Assembly: GCA_963778815.1 (NCBI GenBank)
Contig: CAVZVS010000005.1
Coordinates: 30,653 to 94,652 of the forward strand
Direction: 5' to 3'
Source of the DNA: an uncultured Chloroflexia bacterium
GTDB taxonomy: Bacteria > Chloroflexota > Limnocylindria > Limnocylindrales > CSP1-4
DNA length: 64,000 nt
Shown here: positions 5,112-57,276 of the stretch, piece after piece
How the letters are laid out: each line of letters opens with the position of its first letter
How positions within the stretch are numbered: the stretch's first letter is position 1
Translations under genes and position numbers: made by a program
Notes under the pieces: generated by a model
Told to the model about the DNA's origin: nothing
The model's database searches: none
Seen by the model: the letters and a program-made list of their open reading frames with translations, nothing else

Positions 5112-6352
5112 GCCTTCAGCGCGTTCCAGCGATTGGTGTACTTGTCGATGTCGGTGCCGACCTCGATCAGCTCGACCAGCTTGTCCAGGACGGCTGTGGC
5201 CGGGTTGATCCGGGGGTCACCCGAGATGGTCGGGTCGATCAGCGGCAGGGCCGCGGCGTTGGGGCCCATGTAGCCGATGAAGTTCGTGTTGGCGGCACTG
5301 ACGTTGGCGTCCAGGTTGAAGTCGATCCACAGGTTGGCCGCGACGGGATGCTCGGCCCCGGACAGGACGACCATCGTGTCCGAGCCGCGGATGGCGCCTT
5401 CCGCGGGCACGACGTACTGGGTCTTGGGCTTGTCGGCCAGCATCTGGAAGTAGTCGCCCGACCAGGCGTGGGTCAGCCACAACTGGCCGCTGGTCAGATC
5501 GCCGATGTCGTTGCTCGTGTACTTGCGCAGGAGCGGCTTCTGCTGCTCGAGCAGGGCCAGGATCGCATCGAGGTCTGCCTCCGACGTCGTGTTCGGGTCG
5601 AGCCCGAGCCGGAAGGCGCCGGCGGCGAAGACCTCGCGGACGTCGTCCAGCATCGCCATGTGGCCCTTGTACTTCTCGTCCCAGAGCGCGGTCCAGCTGG
5701 TCAGCTGATCCTTGATCTTGTCGCCGTCCCAGGCGAAGCCGGTGGTCCACCACATGTACGGCATCGAGTTGGCGTTGTCGGGGTCGTACTTCGGGTTGGT
5801 CCACTCGGTCCCGAGGTTGGTCGAATTGGGGATGAGGCCCTGGTCGAGCGGTGCGATGACCCCATCCTTGATCAAGTCCGGGATCCGGGTCGAGACCGGG
5901 TAGGTGACGTCGTAGCCGCCGCCCTTGCCATCGCTCCGGATCTTGGCGATCTGGGTGTCCTCGTCGGGGAACTTGTCGTAGGTGACCGCGATGCCGTACT
6001 TGTCCTGGAATTTCTGGACGGTGTCCTCGCCGACGTAGGCATCCCAGTTGTAGACGAACAGCTTGTCCTCGGGGCTCGGCACCGGGGTCGGTTCGGCGGT
6101 CGCGGTCGGGCTGGCGATGGCGGCCGCGCTGTCAGCGGGCGTCGGGACCGGTGCTGCCGAGGCAGGCGCCGCGGCGGATGCGCTGGCCGTCTCAGCCGTG
6201 CCGCAGGCGGCGATGATCGGGGTCAGAGCGGCCCCAGCCCCGACGATCGCGATCCGCGACAGGAGCTGCCGCCGGGTCAGCCGATGCTCGGCCATGTAGC
6301 GCACGACCATCCGTTCGAGGTCGATGCTGGAACCGTCGTACTCGTGACTCAC
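5108..6352 (-). CDS. potD: Polyamine ABC substrate-binding lipoprotein with Tat-like signal (PotD-like)
   Basis: TRRQLL...AAC signal; LFVYNWDAY, PYMWWTTG, SW..LWD, DD.RE, WSGD. Confidence 0.85.
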   Translation of the reverse strand: MSHEYDGSSIDLERMVVRYMAEHRLTRRQLLSRIAIVGAGAALTPIIAACGTAETASASAAAPASAAPVPTPADSAAAIASPTATAEPTPVPSPEDKLFVYNWDAYVGEDTVQKFQDKYGIAVTYDKFPDEDTQIAKIRSDGKGGGYDVTYPVSTRIPDLIKDGVIAPLDQGLIPNSTNLGTEWTNPKYDPDNANSMPYMWWTTGFAWDGDKIKDQLTSWTALWDEKYKGHMAMLDDVREVFAAGAFRLGLDPNTTSEADLDAILALLEQQKPLLRKYTSNDIGDLTSGQLWLTHAWSGDYFQMLADKPKTQYVVPAEGAIRGSDTMVVLSGAEHPVAANLWIDFNLDANVSAANTNFIGYMGPNAAALPLIDPTISGDPRINPATAVLDKLVELIEVGTDIDKYTNRWNALKA

Positions 6353-7461
6353 GCTGGAACCTCCGTGGGAGCCGGTCGATCGCCCAGGACGAGCGCGTCC
6401 TGGGGCGACCAGCTGATCTCGACATCGTCACCGGCGACGAAACGCCGGTCTGATTTGGGGGCGTGCGCACTGACGAGCGCCCCACCCTGGGTCCTGATGT
6501 GGTACTGGACGCTGGAGCCCATGTAGGCGGACTGCTCGACCCGGCCCTCGATCGTGGCGGGTCCACCGAGGCCCGGAGCGTTGACGACGATCGCCTCTGG
6601 CCGGACCGAGATCTCGAGCGCCTCACCCGGGGCCAGGACCGTGGCCAGGGCGGCCCGGCAGGCGTCGCCCCCGGTCAGCCGGATCGCGGCGACCACCCCG
6701 TCGAGCGTCTCGACCGTGCCCTTGAGCAGGTTGGTGGTGCCCATGAAGTCGGCCACGAAGCGGGTGGCGGGACGGTCGTAGAGGTCCTCGGGCAGGCCGA
6801 TCTGCTCGACCTTGCCCTTGTTCATCACCGCGATCCGGTCGCTCATCGTGAGCGCCTCCTCCTGATCGTGGGTGACGTACACGAAGGTGATCCCGACCTC
6901 GATCTGGATCCGCTTGAGCTCGAGCTGGAGATTGCGCCGCAGCTTGAGGTCGAGCGCCCCGAGCGGCTCGTCGAGCAGAAGCACCTGGGGACGATTGACC
7001 AGGGCTCGCGCCAGGGCGACCCGCTGCTGCTGACCGCCCGACAGCTCGTTCGGCTTGCGTCGACCGTACTCGGTCAGGTGGACCAGGTCGAGCGCCTCGC
7101 CGACCCGGGCCTTGACCTCGACCTCTTTGACCTTGTGCCGACGCAGCCCGAAGGCGATGTTGTCGTGGACGTTGAGGTGGGGGAACAGGGCGTAGCTCTG
7201 GAAGACCATGTTGACCGGCCGCTTATCCGGCGGCTCCATGGTCACGTCGACGCCGCGCAGCTCGATCCGGCCGGCGGTCGGGAGCTCGAAGCCACCGATC
7301 ATCCGGAGCGTGGTCGTCTTCCCGCAACCGGACGGTCCGAGCAGCGAGAAGAATTCCCCCGACCCGATCTCGAGCGAGATGTCGTCGACCGCGCGGACAT
7401 CGCGGAAGAGCTTCGAGACGCCCGTGAGACGGATCTCGGATACCGACCCGGAGATCGTCAT
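6349..7461 (-). CDS. potA: Polyamine ABC transporter ATPase (PotA-like)
   Basis: GPSGCGKTT, LSGGQQQR, LLLDEP, C-terminal TOBE-like region. Confidence 0.9.
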   Translation of the reverse strand: MTISGSVSEIRLTGVSKLFRDVRAVDDISLEIGSGEFFSLLGPSGCGKTTTLRMIGGFELPTAGRIELRGVDVTMEPPDKRPVNMVFQSYALFPHLNVHDNIAFGLRRHKVKEVEVKARVGEALDLVHLTEYGRRKPNELSGGQQQRVALARALVNRPQVLLLDEPLGALDLKLRRNLQLELKRIQIEVGITFVYVTHDQEEALTMSDRIAVMNKGKVEQIGLPEDLYDRPATRFVADFMGTTNLLKGTVETLDGVVAAIRLTGGDACRAALATVLAPGEALEISVRPEAIVVNAPGLGGPATIEGRVEQSAYMGSSVQYHIRTQGGALVSAHAPKSDRRFVAGDDVEISWSPQDALVLGDRPAPTEVPA

Positions 7462-50464: not shown

Positions 50465-50854
50465 ATGGCCAGGCAGTTCGTCGTCCAGCTCAAGAACCAG
50501 CCGGGAGCCCTGGCCATCCTGGCCGAGGCCCTCGCCGCGCGCGGGGTCGATCTGCGGGCGATCGGCGGGGGCAGCATCGGCGATTCGGGCCACGTGATCA
50601 TGACCACCGCCGACGACGACGCGACCAAGGAGATCCTCGACGAGGGCGGCTACACCTACGTCGAGGGCGAGGCGATCCTGTCCGAGGTCGGCGATCGACC
50701 GGGCGGGATGGCCGCCATCGCCCGGGAGCTGGCCGATGCCGGCGTGAACATCCAGGGCCACCTCTTCCTGGGTCGCTGGGGCGACCGTGCCATGTTCACC
50801 TTCGTGGTCGACAAGCCGGACATCGCCCGCCCCATCCTCGAGCGCAAGCCGTAG
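50465..50854 (+). CDS. Tandem ACT-domain protein
   Basis: QF.V.L.N.PG.LA, then DRPGGMA....LADAGVNI; GGAGG RBS. Confidence 0.88.
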   Translation: MARQFVVQLKNQPGALAILAEALAARGVDLRAIGGGSIGDSGHVIMTTADDDATKEILDEGGYTYVEGEAILSEVGDRPGGMAAIARELADAGVNIQGHLFLGRWGDRAMFTFVVDKPDIARPILERKP

Positions 50855-51444
50855 CCCCGACCGACGAGGCCCTCCTCGCGCGTGAAGCCTCCCTCCAGGC
50901 GGAGGCCTCGACCGTCCTCGCCGATCTCGACCTGCTGGCCCGTCTCGCGACGATCGGGCGACCGGTCCAGACGGGCAGCGTCGCGCTCGGCCTGATGGTC
51001 TGGCGCGACATCGACCTGACCGTCCTGTGCCCGTCGCTCGACGTCGAGCCGGTCTTCGAGATCGGCAGGTCGCTGGCAGCCCACCCGCATCTGCGCAAGC
51101 TCGGGTTCCGCAACGACACCGGCCGCTGGAACACCGACCCCGACTACCCCGACGGCCTGTACTGGGCGCTCGAGTATCGGACGCCGACCGGGGCGGCCTG
51201 GAACGTCGATGTGTGGTTCCTGCGCGAGGGCACGACCCAGTTCGACCTCCAGCACCTGGAGACGCTCCTGCCGCGACTGACCCCGGAGACGCGTCTGGCG
51301 ATCCTGCGGATCAAGGACGCCTGGCATGGTCGCCCTGAGTATCGGTCCGAGATCCGGAGCTACCACATCTACGAAGCCGTCCTTGAACACGGCGTGCGGA
51401 CGCCCGATGGGTTCCAGACCTACCTGACCGAGCGCCGGGGTTAG
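50851..51444 (+). CDS. Putative Pol-beta-like nucleotidyltransferase; no canonical start codon found
   Basis: GSVALGLMVWRDID (GS..DxD) and W..DVW motifs; the frame at the expected N-terminus begins GTA overlapping the ACT stop. Confidence 0.65.
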   Translation, partial: VAPTDEALLAREASLQAEASTVLADLDLLARLATIGRPVQTGSVALGLMVWRDIDLTVLCPSLDVEPVFEIGRSLAAHPHLRKLGFRNDTGRWNTDPDYPDGLYWALEYRTPTGAAWNVDVWFLREGTTQFDLQHLETLLPRLTPETRLAILRIKDAWHGRPEYRSEIRSYHIYEAVLEHGVRTPDGFQTYLTERRG

Positions 51445-52169
51445 GCCCGGGGCAGTGCCGACAGAGCACTCGTCGAAGGTGACGTGGCCAGGACGGCCCG
51501 GCGCCCCCGGCGCATGCCGACCGACATCACGATCCGATAGCAGAACAGGAAGGTCACTGCCACCGTGGCGCCGACGTAGATCCACCAGGCCCAGGCAGAA
51601 CCGCTATCGGTCCCCGCTCCGAGTCCGTGAGCGGTCGCGCCGATGAAGGCCAGGAAGGTCAGGTAGTGGAGCAGCCGCCAGGTGCGTTGGCCGATCCTGC
51701 GCCGGACGTAGAAGCTGGCGATCACCAGGGCCATCAGGTAGAACGCGACCTGGCCGGCCGCAACGGCGATCGGCGCGTGCGGCGATAGGCCCGGGACGGC
51801 GATCTGGGACAGGCTGAACGGGATCGTCTTGTCGAGCGCAAGCAGCGCGCCATGGACGCCGGCCAGCCCCAACCCGATCGAGGCCAGGTCCTGGTGGAGA
51901 TCGAACGTGATCGGCCGATGGGCGATCGCATCGAGGATCTTGGTGGAGAGCAGGAGCCCATAGATCACCGACCCGGCCACCGCGAAGTAGGCCAGGAACC
52001 CGGCGATCCGCTCGACCAACCAGGGGAGGCTGGCCCGGTTCGCCTCCCAGGCGGTCGCCAGCGATCGGGCGGCCGAGGGAGCAGTGGCTCCCAGGATCAT
52101 CCCCACCGCGACGGCGAACAAGCCCCAGCGCAGGAGCTGGGTGCGTGGATCCAGGCCCTGGAACCTCAT
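51441..52169 (-). CDS. Ferric-reductase-like (MsrQ-type) transmembrane cytochrome b
   Basis: 6 TM with four His (DLHQ, GVHG, LLHY, TAHG); GLLLST and WR.LHY motifs; ATGA overlap. Confidence 0.85.
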   Translation of the reverse strand: MRFQGLDPRTQLLRWGLFAVAVGMILGATAPSAARSLATAWEANRASLPWLVERIAGFLAYFAVAGSVIYGLLLSTKILDAIAHRPITFDLHQDLASIGLGLAGVHGALLALDKTIPFSLSQIAVPGLSPHAPIAVAAGQVAFYLMALVIASFYVRRRIGQRTWRLLHYLTFLAFIGATAHGLGAGTDSGSAWAWWIYVGATVAVTFLFCYRIVMSVGMRRGRRAVLATSPSTSALSALPRA

Positions 52170-53188
52170 ACCAGCCAGCGCATGATCGAAGGAGTCAAGA
52201 GGAGCTCGTCCCGGTCGGTCAGGAGGATCGCACCGTCCACGCCGGGTCGGGCGAGCGCGTCGAGCGCCACGTCGGAACCGAGGATCACCGCCGTCTTGGC
52301 GAGTGCCTCGGCCTCGCGTGCCGTTCCAGCCAGGACCGTCGCCTGGACGATGTCGGTGCGGGCCGGCAGTCCGGTCCTTGGGTCGATCAGGTGGTGCGCG
52401 ACGCGGTCGCCATGGACCCAACGATGAACGCTCGTCCCGGACGTGGCCAGCCCGAACCGACGGCCACCATGGCGATCCGAGCCGATGAGATCGAGCTCGA
52501 GCAGGTCCTCGTCGTCGGTGCGTGGATCGGCGATTCCCAGTCGCCAGCGCTGACCGCGACCCAGCCTGAGCGCGATGTCGCCGTCAGCATCGACCACAGC
52601 CGCCGGGAACCGATCGAGTCGATCGAGCGCCCGATCGGCCAGCCAGCCTTTGGCCACCCCATCCAGGTCGAAGCGGAGGCCGGCTGAGCGGCGGACGTGT
52701 GTCGTGCGAGGACCCCGATCCATCGACCAGGTGCGGTCGATCGACCCGATGTCGCCGGACGGATCGCCGGAGTGTTCGGCGGCCAGCCGAGCGTTGAGCA
52801 TCGCGACGTCGACGATCCCGTCGCTCAGCCCCTCGGCCATCCGGGCCCAGTCGAGCGCCGCCGCGAGGGTCGGACGAACGGGCACCCGACCGGCCGGGGA
52901 AGCGTTGAGGCGTGCCAAGTCTGAGGACGTCGTGAAGCGGGTCAGGCGGTCGGCCCACGCGCCGACCCGGCGCAGGGTCGATCGCGCTGCCCGGCGCGCT
53001 TGAGAGGTCGCCTCCATCCCGCCATCGATCGGACGGACATGGATGCCGACCGTACCGCCCATCAGGCTCGTCTCGGCCGACACGAGCGGTGGCTCGACGC
53101 CATCGACCGGCCCAGGCGCCGGGTGACCGTGACTGGCCGGCCCGGCGCCTGGGGGCCACGGGGCGGGAGCGACGAACGCGATACTCAT
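52166..53188 (-). CDS. apbE: FAD:protein FMN transferase
   Basis: MGG.V, LTRF...SDL..LN, FDLDG.AKGW.AD, DA.GD, ATSG, HHLIDPRTG.P, AEALAK. Confidence 0.9.
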   Translation of the reverse strand: MSIAFVAPAPWPPGAGPASHGHPAPGPVDGVEPPLVSAETSLMGGTVGIHVRPIDGGMEATSQARRAARSTLRRVGAWADRLTRFTTSSDLARLNASPAGRVPVRPTLAAALDWARMAEGLSDGIVDVAMLNARLAAEHSGDPSGDIGSIDRTWSMDRGPRTTHVRRSAGLRFDLDGVAKGWLADRALDRLDRFPAAVVDADGDIALRLGRGQRWRLGIADPRTDDEDLLELDLIGSDRHGGRRFGLATSGTSVHRWVHGDRVAHHLIDPRTGLPARTDIVQATVLAGTAREAEALAKTAVILGSDVALDALARPGVDGAILLTDRDELLLTPSIMRWLV

Positions 53189-53529
53189 GGCTTGCCTCCC
53201 GATTGACGCGTCGTGACGACCACGACGCGCGGCTTCGGTGCGGGCGCCTGCTTCACGACCGTGTGCGGCGGCGCCGTCTGGCCCGGTTTGAGGTGGACGT
53301 ACTGGACGACGTGGCGCACCGCGGGCGGCGGGTCAGCCGGCAGCGTCACCGTCGTCTGGACCGCGGCGGGCGCCGAGCTTGCAGACGACGGTGCGACGAG
53401 GGCTGTCACCAGCGCGCTGGCCGCTGCGACCGCGCCCATCCCGAAGGCGATCCGGAGCGGGCGAGCGTCCGGACGCGGTCGCGCCACCGGAGCCGGTCGT
53501 GCCGCCCGGCTGCTGCCGATGTCCGCCAT
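53185..53529 (-). CDS. Small membrane-anchored/secreted Pro-rich protein ending VVTTRQSGGKP
   Basis: One hydrophobic helix, Pro/Ala-rich stalk; overlaps both neighbours. Confidence 0.75.
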   Translation of the reverse strand: MADIGSSRAARPAPVARPRPDARPLRIAFGMGAVAAASALVTALVAPSSASSAPAAVQTTVTLPADPPPAVRHVVQYVHLKPGQTAPPHTVVKQAPAPKPRVVVVTTRQSGGKP

Positions 53530-53816
53530 CAGTCGCCTGCCTCCGATCCTTCGGACTCGCCACCGCCGCTGGACTTGATGACCTTGTGGACCGTGACCGT
53601 CTTGCGCGGCTTGGGCGGCGCGATGTAGACCTTGTCGACCTGGACGGGGGGCGGTGCGGCGACGTCCGCAGCGCCTGCGCTCACGGTCGATGCCGGATCC
53701 GCCGAGGCGGCCGGTGCGGTCGTGACACCGGGCGCGAACCCGGCGGCCGTGAGTGCGACTGCGAGCGCCAGGGCGGCGGCCAGTGAGGCGAAGAAGAGCG
53801 CGGCCTTGTGGATCAT
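53529..53816 (-). CDS. Small secreted Pro/Ala-rich protein with acidic tail
   Basis: Signal peptide MIHKAALFFASLAAALALA; VQVDKVYI; SSGGGESEGSEAGD; GAGG RBS. Confidence 0.75.
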   Translation of the reverse strand: MIHKAALFFASLAAALALAVALTAAGFAPGVTTAPAASADPASTVSAGAADVAAPPPVQVDKVYIAPPKPRKTVTVHKVIKSSGGGESEGSEAGD

Positions 53817-53957
53817 CGTGGCTGACCTCATCGGTTGGTTGGTGATGAAGGCAGCATCGGGTCGTGCCATGGGACCGCCCTGTGGCTCCGATGAGAAGCT
53901 TCAAAGACAGGCCATTCGGTCCTCGACGTGCGGGTGTCTCACCCGCAGGATGAGCAC

Positions 53958-54635
53958 ATGATGCAGATCCTGGTGGTCGAGGACGAAGCCAAGATGGCCG
54001 CGCTGATCAAGCGCGTGCTGACGGCGGAGCGGCATGTCGTCGACGTGGCGCCCGATGGGCTGACCGCCGTCGCGCTGGCCCAGCGCGGCGCATACGACGT
54101 GATCGTCCTGGATCGGATGCTCCCGGACATCGACGGGGTGACCCTCCTGCGGCTCCTCCGGACGAAGGGGCTGGTCACGCCCGTCCTGATGCTGACAGCG
54201 CTCGGAGCGGTCGACGACCGGGTCGCCGGGCTCGACGCCGGGGCGGACGACTATCTGGCCAAACCGTTCGCCTTCGCCGAGCTCATCGCCCGGATCCGCG
54301 CCCTCGGTCGGCGCTCCGCCGTGGCCCCCGTCCGGCCGCTCCAGGCCGGCGACCTGTCGATCGACGATCTCCGCCACGTAGCCCAGGTCGGGGACCGGAC
54401 AGTGGACCTGTCGGCCCGCGAGTTCGCCCTGCTCGGCTACCTCATCCGCCATGTCGGCCAGGTGTTGACCCGGCAGCAGATCCTCGATGCGGTCTGGGGG
54501 GCGGAGCCCGACGTCTACTCGAACGTGGTGGACCTGTACGTCCATTACCTGCGCCGCAAGCTCGGAGAGCTCGGGCGGGCCGACCGGCTGCGCACCGTTC
54601 GCGGCGTCGGCTACACGCTCCGGGCTGAGGCCTGA
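53958..54635 (+). CDS. OmpR family response regulator
   Basis: ILVVEDE, LDRMLP..DG, GLD.GADDYL.KPF, L..REF.LL.YL, NVVD.YV.YLRRKL, TVRGVGY. Confidence 0.94.
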   Translation: MMQILVVEDEAKMAALIKRVLTAERHVVDVAPDGLTAVALAQRGAYDVIVLDRMLPDIDGVTLLRLLRTKGLVTPVLMLTALGAVDDRVAGLDAGADDYLAKPFAFAELIARIRALGRRSAVAPVRPLQAGDLSIDDLRHVAQVGDRTVDLSAREFALLGYLIRHVGQVLTRQQILDAVWGAEPDVYSNVVDLYVHYLRRKLGELGRADRLRTVRGVGYTLRAEA

Positions 54636-54644
54636 TCGGTCCGC

Positions 54645-55940
54645 ATGACCGATCCGACCGCCCGGCTCCTCCGGACGACCCGTCGCCGGCTGATCGTGGT
54701 CACCCTCGGGCTGATCGCCTTGCTCGTGGTCGGGATCGGGGCTGCGACCGCCTTCGTCGGCCTGCGTGTGCTCGATGCAGAGGTCGACCGGGCGCTGGCC
54801 GCCAGCGTCGACTCGGCGATCGTGGGGCTTCACGGCGAGCTGCCCCAGGCGCAGGGGGAGACCGATGGGGACGACACCGCCCCAGCCTCAGCCGATACCT
54901 TCCTGCTCTACCTGGATCCATCCGGCAAGTCGCTGGCGAACCCTTCGCGCGTGGCCCTCCGGGGGCTGCCCAACGCATCCGCACTGGCCGCCGCTTCGTC
55001 CTCTGGGCGCGACCTGCGGACGGTCGATGCGGCCGGGGTCGAGGTCCGCCTCCTGACCGTGCCAGTCCTCGCGTCGGAAGGTGGGTCGCCGGCCGGCTTC
55101 GTCCAGGGAGGGTTCGTCCTGACCCTTCACGATGCCCAATCGAACAGCCTGATCGCGGCCATCGCGCTGGTCGGCGTCGTCGGCCTGCTCGGCGCTGCGC
55201 TGGTCACCCTCCTCGTCACTGGGGACGCACTCGTGCCGATCCGCCAGTCGTTCGCTGCTCAGCGGCGCTTCGTGGCCGATGCCTCGCACGAGTTGCGAAC
55301 CCCGACCGCGTTGATCCGGGCGAACGCCGAGGTGCTCGATCGCGAGGACCTCGTCCTCGGCGACGGGCGTCCCCTGGTCGGCGATATCGTGGCTGAGACC
55401 GACCGCCTCTCCCGCCTCATCGGCGACCTGCTCCAGCTCGCCTCGTCCGACGCGAGCGGGCTGGTCCTCGATCGGCAGCGGACCGACCTGGCCGCCGTCG
55501 CCACCGACACCGTGCGCCAGGCGGGGGCGCTGGCAGCCGAGCGCCGGGTAGCGCTGCGGATGCTGCCGGTGCCGGTCGGTGCCTCGACCTTCGTCCTGGG
55601 CGACCGCGATCGGTTGACCCAGCTGCTGCTGATCCTGCTCGACAACGCATTCGATCACACGCCCGACGGGACGTCCGTCACGGTCGGCGTTCGACCGACC
55701 GGCCGGACCGTGGAGTTGACGGTGGCCGACCAGGGGCCCGGGATCGCGAGTGGCGACCGCGATCGGATCTTCGAGCCGTTCGCTCGACTGACCGGCGTGT
55801 CCCGTGAGCGCGCCGGCGGCACGGGGCTCGGCTTGGCCATCGCCCGCCGGATCGCGACGGCCCACGACGGGACGATCGGAGTGGACGACGCAGCAGAGGG
55901 CGGGGCGAGGTTCGTGCTCACCCTGCCGAAGGTGGACTGA
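54645..55940 (+). CDS. Sensor histidine kinase (HisKA)
   Basis: 2 TM; FVADASHELRTP; LLDNA, D.GPGI, IFEPF, GTGLGLAI. Confidence 0.94.
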   Translation: MTDPTARLLRTTRRRLIVVTLGLIALLVVGIGAATAFVGLRVLDAEVDRALAASVDSAIVGLHGELPQAQGETDGDDTAPASADTFLLYLDPSGKSLANPSRVALRGLPNASALAAASSSGRDLRTVDAAGVEVRLLTVPVLASEGGSPAGFVQGGFVLTLHDAQSNSLIAAIALVGVVGLLGAALVTLLVTGDALVPIRQSFAAQRRFVADASHELRTPTALIRANAEVLDREDLVLGDGRPLVGDIVAETDRLSRLIGDLLQLASSDASGLVLDRQRTDLAAVATDTVRQAGALAAERRVALRMLPVPVGASTFVLGDRDRLTQLLLILLDNAFDHTPDGTSVTVGVRPTGRTVELTVADQGPGIASGDRDRIFEPFARLTGVSRERAGGTGLGLAIARRIATAHDGTIGVDDAAEGGARFVLTLPKVD

Positions 55941-56436: not shown

Positions 56437-57276
56437 ATGGCCGCGACGACCACCGGGGTCGACCACCAACGGGGTATCCGGCTCTCCGGACCGGTGGCCC
56501 GGCCGGGTCTCGATCCGAATGCGACGCTGGTTGCCCGGATCGACCTGTCGCCGACGATCGCCCGGTTCGTCGTCCGCCCGGACGGCGGCGCCGGCCCGTT
56601 CGAACCGGGCCAGTACTTCGCGCTCGGTCTCACCGTCGACGGCCGGCCGCTGCTGCGCCCGTACTCGACCTCGTCCGCAGCGGGCAGCCGGACGGAGCTC
56701 GAGTTCCTCATCCGGCTCGTGCCCGCTGGCGCGTTCACGCCTCGGTTGTGGGCTCTCCGGGTAGGGCAACGACTTTGGCTGGGGCGAGCCAAAGGCCTCT
56801 TCCGACTTCGTCCAGGCGATCAACGGACGCACCTGTTCGTGGCCACGGGCACCGGTCTGGCGCCGTTCGTCTCGATGCTCGCGACGCTCATCCCGAACGA
56901 CCCGGCCGGCCCGTCCCGGATCAGTCTTGCTGCGACAGCGTCGCCTCGGGCGCTCGTCGTCCACGGGGTCTCGCATGTCGAGGAGCTCGCCTACCGCGAT
57001 CGGCTGGAACGACTGCAAGCAACCGAGGTCGGTCTGCACTACGTACCGGTCGTCTCCCGTCCAGCCGATCCCGCCAACTCCGGCTGGACGGGCCTCACCG
57101 GCCGGCTCGAAGCGCAGCTCAGCGACCTGTGCACGACCCACCGGCTCGACCCCGCCTTGAGCGTCGCTTACCTGTGCGGCAACCCGGCGATGATCGCGAC
57201 GGTCGAGGGGATCCTGGCCGACCACGGCTTCGCCCGGGAGGCGGTCATCAGCGAGCAGTACTGGCCGGCCAGCTGA
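56437..57276 (+). CDS. Ferredoxin-NADP+ reductase-like flavoprotein
   Basis: [40 protein letters not shown]. Confidence 0.88.
   Translation: MAATTTGVDHQRGIRLSGPVARPGLDPNATLVARIDLSPTIARFVVRPDGGAGPFEPGQYFALGLTVDGRPLLRPYSTSSAAGSRTELEFLIRLVPAGAFTPRLWALRVGQRLWLGRAKGLFRLRPGDQRTHLFVATGTGLAPFVSMLATLIPNDPAGPSRISLAATASPRALVVHGVSHVEELAYRDRLERLQATEVGLHYVPVVSRPADPANSGWTGLTGRLEAQLSDLCTTHRLDPALSVAYLCGNPAMIATVEGILADHGFAREAVISEQYWPAS

Follow-up and report, generated by a model that had tools for sequence, protein, structure and literature searches.

The window analysed here is a stretch of 64,000 nucleotides (64 kb) from an uncultured soil member of the Limnocylindrales (Chloroflexota), known from a metagenome-assembled genome of 2.28 Mb that is 66% complete. 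On the minus strand, at 51441-53816, it carries a four-gene operon for two small anchored proteins (here A and B), a homologue of the transferase ApbE, which attaches flavin mononucleotide (FMN) to proteins, and a cytochrome b. We find that B ends in a strongly conserved Ser-containing tail which corresponds to the canonical flavinylation tails of a paralogous operon in the same genome. Judging from its sequence and that of its relatives, B is probably a fold-less carrier of flavin, of a kind not yet described, by which electrons leave the cell. The conserved unit exceeds the four genes: it is an eight-gene module that includes a two-component system, a ferredoxin and a ferredoxin reductase (FNR). 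The module is a variant of the MsrQ-like flavinylation systems that has not been described before.

Operon layout and the tail of protein B

The genes follow each other on the minus strand in the order A, B, ApbE, cytochrome b, and each neighbouring pair overlaps (TGATG at A/B, ATGA at B/ApbE and ATGA at ApbE/cytochrome).

53529..53816, minus strand: gene A, 95 amino acids; ATG start kept in orthologues; signal/anchor helix and acidic tail
53185..53529, minus strand: gene B, 114 amino acids, 18 of them Pro; single-pass, N-in/C-out; ends VVVVTTRQSGGKP
53197..53211, minus strand: B tail motif T107-R108-Q109-S110-G111, then G-K-P and stop; S110 is the proposed FMN acceptor
52166..53188, minus strand: ApbE-family FAD (flavin adenine dinucleotide):protein FMN transferase homologue, 340 amino acids; PF02424; leaderless
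51441..52169, minus strand: MsrQ/ferric-reductase-like di-haem cytochrome b with six predicted helices, 242 amino acids; no fused NAD/FAD domain

The initial annotation had described an overlapping operon of these genes, with a four-His ferric-reductase-like membrane protein, an ApbE lacking an obvious lipoprotein signal and no [S/T]GA[S/T] motif in any product. All of this holds. The four genes are present with overlapping junctions, H92, H106, H168 and H181 of the cytochrome are invariant in 34 orthologues, the ApbE orthologues are equally devoid of a lipoprotein signal and a regular-expression search of the four products is negative for the motif. The wider pattern [ST]G[AG][ST] is likewise absent from all eight module proteins (A, B, ApbE, cytochrome, regulator, kinase, ferredoxin and FNR).

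B consists of a variable Arg/Pro-rich cytoplasmic N-terminus, an RPDxxPxR juxtamembrane motif, a membrane helix, a Pro-rich ectodomain carrying V(R/Q)HVxxYVxLKPGQTAPP and the C-terminal tail. In its AlphaFold2 model only the membrane helix (residues 23-45) is formed and the chain is otherwise extended. Neither B nor A matches any Pfam or NCBIfam family at E <= 0.1, and neither contains a recognised ApbE-substrate domain (FMN_bind, NqrB/RnfD, DUF2271, DUF3570, Flavodoxin_4 and FMN_red were considered).

A profile search of 1.84 billion representative proteins yields a B family of 234 representatives, in which the C-terminal [T/S]-x-[Q/T]-S-G is the best-conserved element. Specifically, 139 of the best 150 representatives end with this motif plus 0-5 residues, and the remaining 11 look like truncated or fused gene calls. 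Among the 139 tails the second position is Arg in 95, Thr in 22, Lys in 8 and Gly in 1, and the third is Gln in 137. T107, S110 and G111 are invariant in 41 aligned sequences. A basic residue often follows S-G, Ser or Thr occurs beyond S-G in only 16 tails and five tails terminate exactly at ...QSG. This leaves S110, or with lower likelihood T107, as the acceptor residue in the tail. In long variants of B the tail is set apart from the rest of the protein by a Pro-rich linker of 30-60 amino acids. The stop codon of B overlaps the start of ApbE in nearly all orthologues.

Other parts of B deserve mention. The juxtamembrane motif, more specifically (R/K)PDxxP(L/M)R at residues 19-26 (window ~53452-53475, minus strand), is nearly invariant in a family whose N-terminus otherwise varies in length between 10 and 90 residues, and either the leaderless ApbE or the cytochrome could dock there. 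Two 1.1-Mb genomes of the same order (loci L026, 827-1450, and L030, 394-1014) encode a B homologue with two copies of VVY(V/I)YLKPGE(x)PP, ending ...PPTKPSGG or ...ATKPSGAP, and no separate A gene was detected there. A second frame ending ...ITRQSGAK in the host genome (contig 4, position 250470) was dismissed as out-of-frame noise.

Paralogous ApbE systems

The host genome has three ApbE genes, and the neighbours of the other two show what canonical substrates look like in this lineage. Contig 2 holds a cluster of the order FRE(FAD/NAD)-FMN_bind-ApbE (locus L006, 5276-8103; contig 2, ~152.3-155.1 kb) in which the FMN_bind protein carries the site DLVSGATYTS. This protein starts with MPRRAVIAIAG, a Tat-like (twin-arginine translocation) twin arginine, and its ApbE is leaderless, which together suggest that in this lineage flavinylation takes place in the cytoplasm and is followed by Tat export.

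On contig 4 the operon reads FUR-ZnuA-ABC_tran-ABC-3-cytochrome b-s1-s2-ApbE (locus L007, 914-6715, with ApbE at 5723-6715; contig 4, ~476.9-482.7 kb), an arrangement kept in 20 of 41 relatives. Its gene content suggests that a module of tail flavin and cytochrome is tied to a Fur-family-regulated Mn/Zn/Fe ABC importer. Both s1 and s2 are anchored proteins with coiled coils; in the host genome s2 ends ...NATSGASGH. Across relatives the C-terminus of s2 is ...[N/H]-x-[S/T]-[S/T]-[G/C/S]-A-S-G-[H/K]-(P), i.e. it contains the canonical [S/T]GA[S/T]; s1 in many genomes has ...T-G-A-S-G followed by an acidic GGEGGGDD tail. With its basic ...S-G-K-P end s2 thus mirrors B, and s1 with its acidic end mirrors A. 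When aligned on S-G-K-P, T-R-Q-S-G-K-P of B matches T-G-A-S-G-K-P of s2 residue for residue. In this register the Thr...Ser spacing, the acceptor Ser and the trailing Gly are kept, and Gly-Ala is replaced by Arg-Gln.

This correspondence bears on a different meaning of the tail. T-R-Q-S-G-(x)-K-P could be a flavin-independent signal for sorting or cross-linking (e.g. a Gln-Lys isopeptide or attachment to the envelope), with ApbE serving the cytochrome system in trans; the nearly invariant Gln and the basic residue so often found behind S-G would fit such a role. However, the match to the canonical flavinylation tails of the paralogous operon would then be coincidence, five members of the B family end at ...QSG and lack the Lys, and the module, as seen in the 51 loci compared below, has no conserved gene for a transglutaminase, sortase or peptidase. 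We consider this explanation very improbable.

The ApbE proteins themselves sort in the same way as their neighbours. In a maximum likelihood tree of 59 ApbEs the clades follow neighbour type: the enzymes next to FMN_bind form a clade with support of 100/100, those next to TGASG tails one with 100/99, and those next to TxQSG tails, the order-level TKPSG forms included, one with 100/99. Relatives contain further ApbE-cytochrome pairs, some followed by a NuoF-like gene, with small anchored proteins ending ...SGGS encoded ahead of them. These SGGS-type ApbEs fall into two starred subclades (97/94 and 100/100), and the branch joining them is not starred (94/78). The agreement between clade and neighbour fits dedicated enzyme-substrate pairs, as far as a phylogeny can indicate this.

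The N-terminus of protein A is a signal/anchor helix, its ectodomain has a VQVD(K/T)VY(V/I)xPP strand followed by TVTVHKV and its tail is acidic, ending ...SSGGGESEGSEAGD. The tail is composed of 31% Gly, 21% Glu and 13% Asp; the last 15 amino acids have a net charge of -4.3, with a final Asp in 33 and a His in 15 of 34 sequences. No conserved Ser or Thr is found in the A tail in the orthologue alignment. A is probably an unmodified acidic partner, judging from this composition. It would be anchored similarly to B, its acceptor residue either lost or never present, and it may pair with the basic ectodomain of B or hold the external acceptor, which could be a metal cation. That A and B are clear paralogues was rejected: tblastn cross-hits were obtained without composition correction and hhalign does not back them.

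The initial annotation had named the Thr/Ser-rich C-termini of both small proteins as candidates for flavinylation. For B the idea has gained ground: the [T/S]-x-[Q/T]-S-G tail recurs at the C-terminus in 139 of the best 150 representatives, T107, S110 and G111 do not vary and the tail aligns with that of a paralogue, so that B appears a credible candidate. For A the idea finds no support, since its tail has no conserved Ser or Thr.

The cytochrome b and other candidate substrates of ApbE

The cytochrome of the window scores 22.7 bits against Pfam Ferric_reduct (PF01794), under the cut-off of 28; the family is matched by 27 of 34 orthologues at E <= 0.01 (best 6.1e-7). The His pairs H92/H106 and H168/H181 sit on two transmembrane helices with spacings of 13 and 12 residues. 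The AlphaFold2 model has a pLDDT (predicted local distance difference test) of 90.4, and its best Foldseek matches in the PDB are STEAP2, SpNOX (S. pneumoniae NOX) and STEAP1, at a probability of 0.94-1.0 but otherwise modest values (E 0.06-0.5, TM-scores 0.38-0.45).

Thr187 of this protein lies in the outer-face loop H-G-x-x-A-G-T-D beside the outer haem ligand H181 and is at least 90% conserved. As A and B have no canonical motif, one could suppose that both are accessory or scaffold subunits that stay unmodified, or that they modulate the neighbouring sensor kinase, and that ApbE acts on the cytochrome (e.g. at Thr187) or on the distant FMN_bind protein with its canonical DLVSGATYTS site on another contig. 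Comparison with relatives speaks against both substrates. FRE proteins with a canonical FMN_bind partner have Ala, Ser, Thr or Ile at the Thr187 position of the G-x-D loop, which marks it as a trait of the family at large rather than a site peculiar to the tail clusters. As for FMN_bind, each relative has 3-5 ApbE genes and a single FMN_bind gene, always adjacent to its own ApbE of another clade, and it is therefore not the partner of the window's ApbE; moreover, relative G013 has a B-type operon and no FMN_bind match. A canonical FMN-binding substrate co-conserved with this apbE had been named at the outset as the finding that would overturn the proposal for the small proteins. Such a gene is present elsewhere in the genome, but with an ApbE of its own from a different clade. 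The accessory-subunit idea also leaves unexplained why an extreme C-terminal pentapeptide is conserved on a variable linker. We regard it as unlikely.

The ApbE enzyme and the case against flavinylation of B

The ApbE of the window matches PF02424 with 124.4 bits (cut-off 25.6, E = 7.9e-36) and ApbE/Ftp structures of the PDB with E from 4.6e-14 down to 2.4e-8. It was aligned to 4ifu, and residue numbers here are those of T. pallidum Ftp. D159, K165, G166, T239, S240, H255, H256 and D259 are kept in the window's enzyme and in 44 of 44 orthologues. The catalytic His of the family is H256 in T. pallidum Ftp and H257 in V. cholerae ApbE, and Asp284 and Thr288 are Mg2+ ligands of Ftp. Homology lets us predict, with moderate confidence, that this enzyme transfers FMN to a protein Ser or Thr.

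Several observations weigh against B being its substrate, or against the wider scheme set out below. We know of no proven ApbE site without a Gly-Ala core, which is absent from the B tail. Chance frames ending near [ST]GA[ST] number 52 in the host genome (70% GC), so a terminal motif alone proves nothing. If S-G-G of B were aligned on the S-G-G-S of the other small anchored proteins, an alternative register, the acceptor position would be non-hydroxyl or absent. Glu and Lys occupy the Mg2+-ligand positions D284 and T288 in the window's ApbE and all 44 orthologues, and the B-type clade might for this reason follow a different chemistry. A hydrophobic N-terminus or lipobox Cys is present in none of the window's ApbE and ~48 orthologues, and the tail of B is predicted to lie outside the membrane; modification before export, or some other export route, must be assumed. 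A relationship between A and B is weakly supported, as hhalign matches just the membrane helix (86% probability). Finally, ferredoxin and FNR, discussed below, are the likely cytoplasmic electron source on grounds of synteny only.

The unusual Glu/Lys pair and the missing signal peptide raise the question whether this homologue is a transferase at all. It could bind or hydrolyse FAD, or help to assemble flavin or haem into the cytochrome on the cytoplasmic side; the B tail, basic and thus electrostatically complementary to the acidic tail of A, would in that case serve as a docking peptide, be it for the cytochrome, the A tail or the sensor domain of the kinase. Yet the Glu/Lys pair is also found in 19 of 19 ApbEs of the contig-4 type, whose neighbours carry textbook T-G-A-S tails, so it coexists with apparently canonical substrates. 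At the same positions the FMN_bind-partnered paralogue has Asp/Thr and the NuoF-linked paralogues have Asn/Thr. The Lys at the T288 position might stand in for the metal ion, to judge from the alignment. Catalytic His256 and the FAD-binding residues are kept. Although an N-terminal lipoprotein or secretion signal is typical of the ApbE family, it is not universal: all three ApbEs of the host genome, the one with the canonical partner included, are leaderless, and this is a lineage-wide feature. It is improbable, in our judgement, that the enzyme is no transferase.

Flavinylation of B remains the explanation we prefer. One tentative scenario, which we hold to be possible but doubtful, is that the leaderless Glu/Lys ApbE flavinylates the Ser of the nascent B tail in the cytoplasm and that the fold-less tail is then threaded out as a swinging-arm FMN, which on its Pro-rich stalk would carry electrons from the ferredoxin-fed cytochrome b to an acceptor in the cell envelope. 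Tat export of B after cytoplasmic modification was considered and rejected: TatC is present, but only R-x-x-R precedes the helix of B and there is no twin arginine.

The eight-gene module

Four further genes on the plus strand complete the module, divergent from gene A.

53881..53928, strand not assigned: candidate regulator-binding/promoter block between the regulator gene and gene A, from the intergenic alignment
53958..54635, plus strand: OmpR/PhoB-type response regulator, Pfam Response_reg and Trans_reg_C; divergent from A, adjacent to the operon in most of the 51 loci compared below
54645..55940, plus strand: sensor histidine kinase, Pfam HisKA and HATPase_c; two membrane helices, extracytoplasmic loop
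56129..56434, plus strand: small 2x[4Fe-4S]/7Fe-type ferredoxin, Pfam Fer4
56437..57276, plus strand: FNR-type NAD(P)H:ferredoxin reductase, Pfam FAD_binding_6 and NAD_binding_1

All 51 Limnocylindria loci retrieved from public species genomes have the order regulator(-) / A, B, ApbE, cytochrome(+), and an arrangement recurring in all related loci is not due to chance. It is present in 17 of 19 genomes of the same genus, the window's own counted, and in several other genera of the host's family; B-ApbE-cytochrome is found in three 1.1-Mb genomes of the same order. Linkage to the operon is seen for the kinase in 47, the ferredoxin in 43 and the FNR in 41 of the 51 loci. Ferredoxin and FNR come straight after the cytochrome gene, on its strand, in ten divergent loci and follow the kinase in the others. 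As the linkage survives rearrangement, ferredoxin and FNR probably share a function with the operon and form one functional unit with it. In the window the ATG of FNR lies three bases past the stop codon of the ferredoxin gene. Since the cytochrome has no fused dehydrogenase domain, ferredoxin and FNR are its likely cytoplasmic source of electrons.

Our results lead us to favour, without great certainty, a view in which the four operon genes form the membrane half of the module, which would export electrons under two-component control. Electrons would pass from cytoplasmic NAD(P)H to the FNR-type flavoprotein, from there to the small ferredoxin and on to the inner haem of the MsrQ/ferric-reductase-like cytochrome b. 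The outer haem would reduce an FMN esterified to Ser110 of B by the operon's own ApbE, and the Pro-rich stalk of fold-less B would allow this flavin to move to and fro between the cytochrome and an acceptor outside. We judge this path, as a whole, to be somewhat more probable than the remaining possibilities taken together. Gene content, synteny, conservation of the motifs, homology of ApbE and the cytochrome and the match of the tail to the paralogous canonical tails are shown by the sequences themselves; flavinylation of Ser110, the route of the electrons, what A does and which acceptor is used are inferred from them. A metal may be the acceptor because the tail of A is acidic and the paralogue lies within a FUR-ZnuABC operon.

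Relation to known systems

Flavinylation by ApbE underlies Nqr, Rnf, NosR and extracellular electron transfer. MsrQ-like flavinylation systems are defined operationally by a PF01794 gene inside a cluster that contains ApbE or FMN_bind (Meheust et al. 2021, PMC8238504), and in the present module a PF01794-type gene stands directly beside ApbE, the ApbE stop codon overlapping the cytochrome start. Like the MsrQ-like clusters (Meheust et al. 2021, PMC8238504; Huang et al. 2024, PMC11334425), the module combines ApbE, an adjacent di-haem protein of the PF01794 type and a cytoplasmic NAD(P)H-linked donor. For those clusters extracytosolic reduction has been proposed, sometimes tied to metal uptake, and the paralogous operon of our host adjoins FUR-ZnuA-ABC genes. 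FMN_bind is typically present in them, together with either a fused NAD domain or a NuoF-like protein (PMC8238504), whereas the module has no FMN_bind, DUF2271 or DUF3570 protein, its candidate carrier is a fold-less tail and a separate ferredoxin and FNR are the likely donor. Its host belongs to the Chloroflexota, as opposed to the Actinobacteria of the MsrQ-like clusters. Orphan apbE genes, for which no substrate is apparent, occur in ~4% of genomes (PMC8238504).

Short terminal acceptors have precedents. A seven-residue motif is enough for ApbE, works best at a protein terminus and may have Ser as acceptor; changing D to A has a minor effect, and G to A or A to V leaves ~50% flavinylation (PMC12052999). 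The engineered Flavin-tag (Tong et al. 2021, as reviewed in PMC12052999) resembles what is proposed for B in that a short terminal peptide without a flavin-binding fold suffices, best at the terminus. So do the FMN_red proteins of Lactococcus, in which flavin is attached to a C-terminal extension that has no structure (PMC11334425). However, both kinds of site keep D-x-x-[S/T]-G-A-[S/T], whereas B has [T/S]-x-Q-S-G with Arg-Gln for Gly-Ala; and the flavin of FMN_red folds back into the protein's own flavin-binding domain, which B lacks. We found no report in the literature of natural tail-type ApbE substrates without a fold.

A cytoplasmic location of ApbE also has a precedent, as cytosolic ApbEs exist (PMC12052999). 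That of Klebsiella pneumoniae, like the window's ApbE, has no lipoprotein or secretion signal (PMC12052999). It acts on a soluble fumarate reductase of the cytoplasm that has FMN_bind and the canonical motif, in contrast to the module, where the acceptor tail is predicted to lie outside the membrane and the enzyme has Glu/Lys at the Mg2+-ligand positions.

The cytochrome and its donor have a counterpart in E. coli, where MsrQ and the soluble flavin reductase Fre reportedly form a two-component NOX-like system, a result attributed to Juillan-Binard et al. 2017 (cited in PMC8238504). In both cases a cytochrome b of the ferric-reductase domain type has no dehydrogenase domain of its own; its electrons come, or in the module would come, from a soluble NAD(P)H-dependent reductase encoded separately. 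Unlike what is proposed for the module, the E. coli system is not known to involve an ApbE, a covalent flavin carrier or a ferredoxin, and its acceptor is the molybdoenzyme MsrP.

If B is modified, ApbE substrates need neither a flavin-binding fold nor a Gly-Ala core, and searches for the [S/T]GA[S/T] motif as well as domain searches miss a class of carriers. Abundant soil Chloroflexota would then own an NAD(P)H-driven, sensor-controlled exit route for electrons, and the position of the paralogous operon behind FUR-ZnuA-ABC suggests a link to metal reduction or uptake. The tail and its matched enzyme would also be a natural short tag orthogonal to the engineered Flavin-tag. If, in addition, the nascent tail were modified in the cytoplasm, the recognition code of ApbE would be wider, with a class of fold-less substrates and a modify-then-export route for covalent flavins.

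Flanking sequences

An open reading frame at window 50800-51444 on the plus strand (~214 amino acids, no Pfam match) converges on the cytochrome gene. No more than 8 of 51 loci have it in the vicinity of the module, and it does not appear to belong there. The best NCBIfam matches of the response regulator are RppA and CopR-like, both under their cut-offs. In the intergenic region between the regulator gene and gene A there is no match to the sigma-70 consensus. A terminator scan was empty, and an Rfam search gave no match, the FMN riboswitch included. The region contains a block of ~48 nucleotides at 53881-53928, reading GTCGAG...GGCCTGTCTTTGAAGCTTCTCATC...CACA on the minus strand, which is almost invariant, with 28 invariant columns in the alignment of 15 orthologous intergenic regions that are otherwise divergent. 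This block includes the 8-bp palindrome GAAGCTTC and is probably a binding site for the response regulator or a promoter element, a candidate put forward from the alignment.

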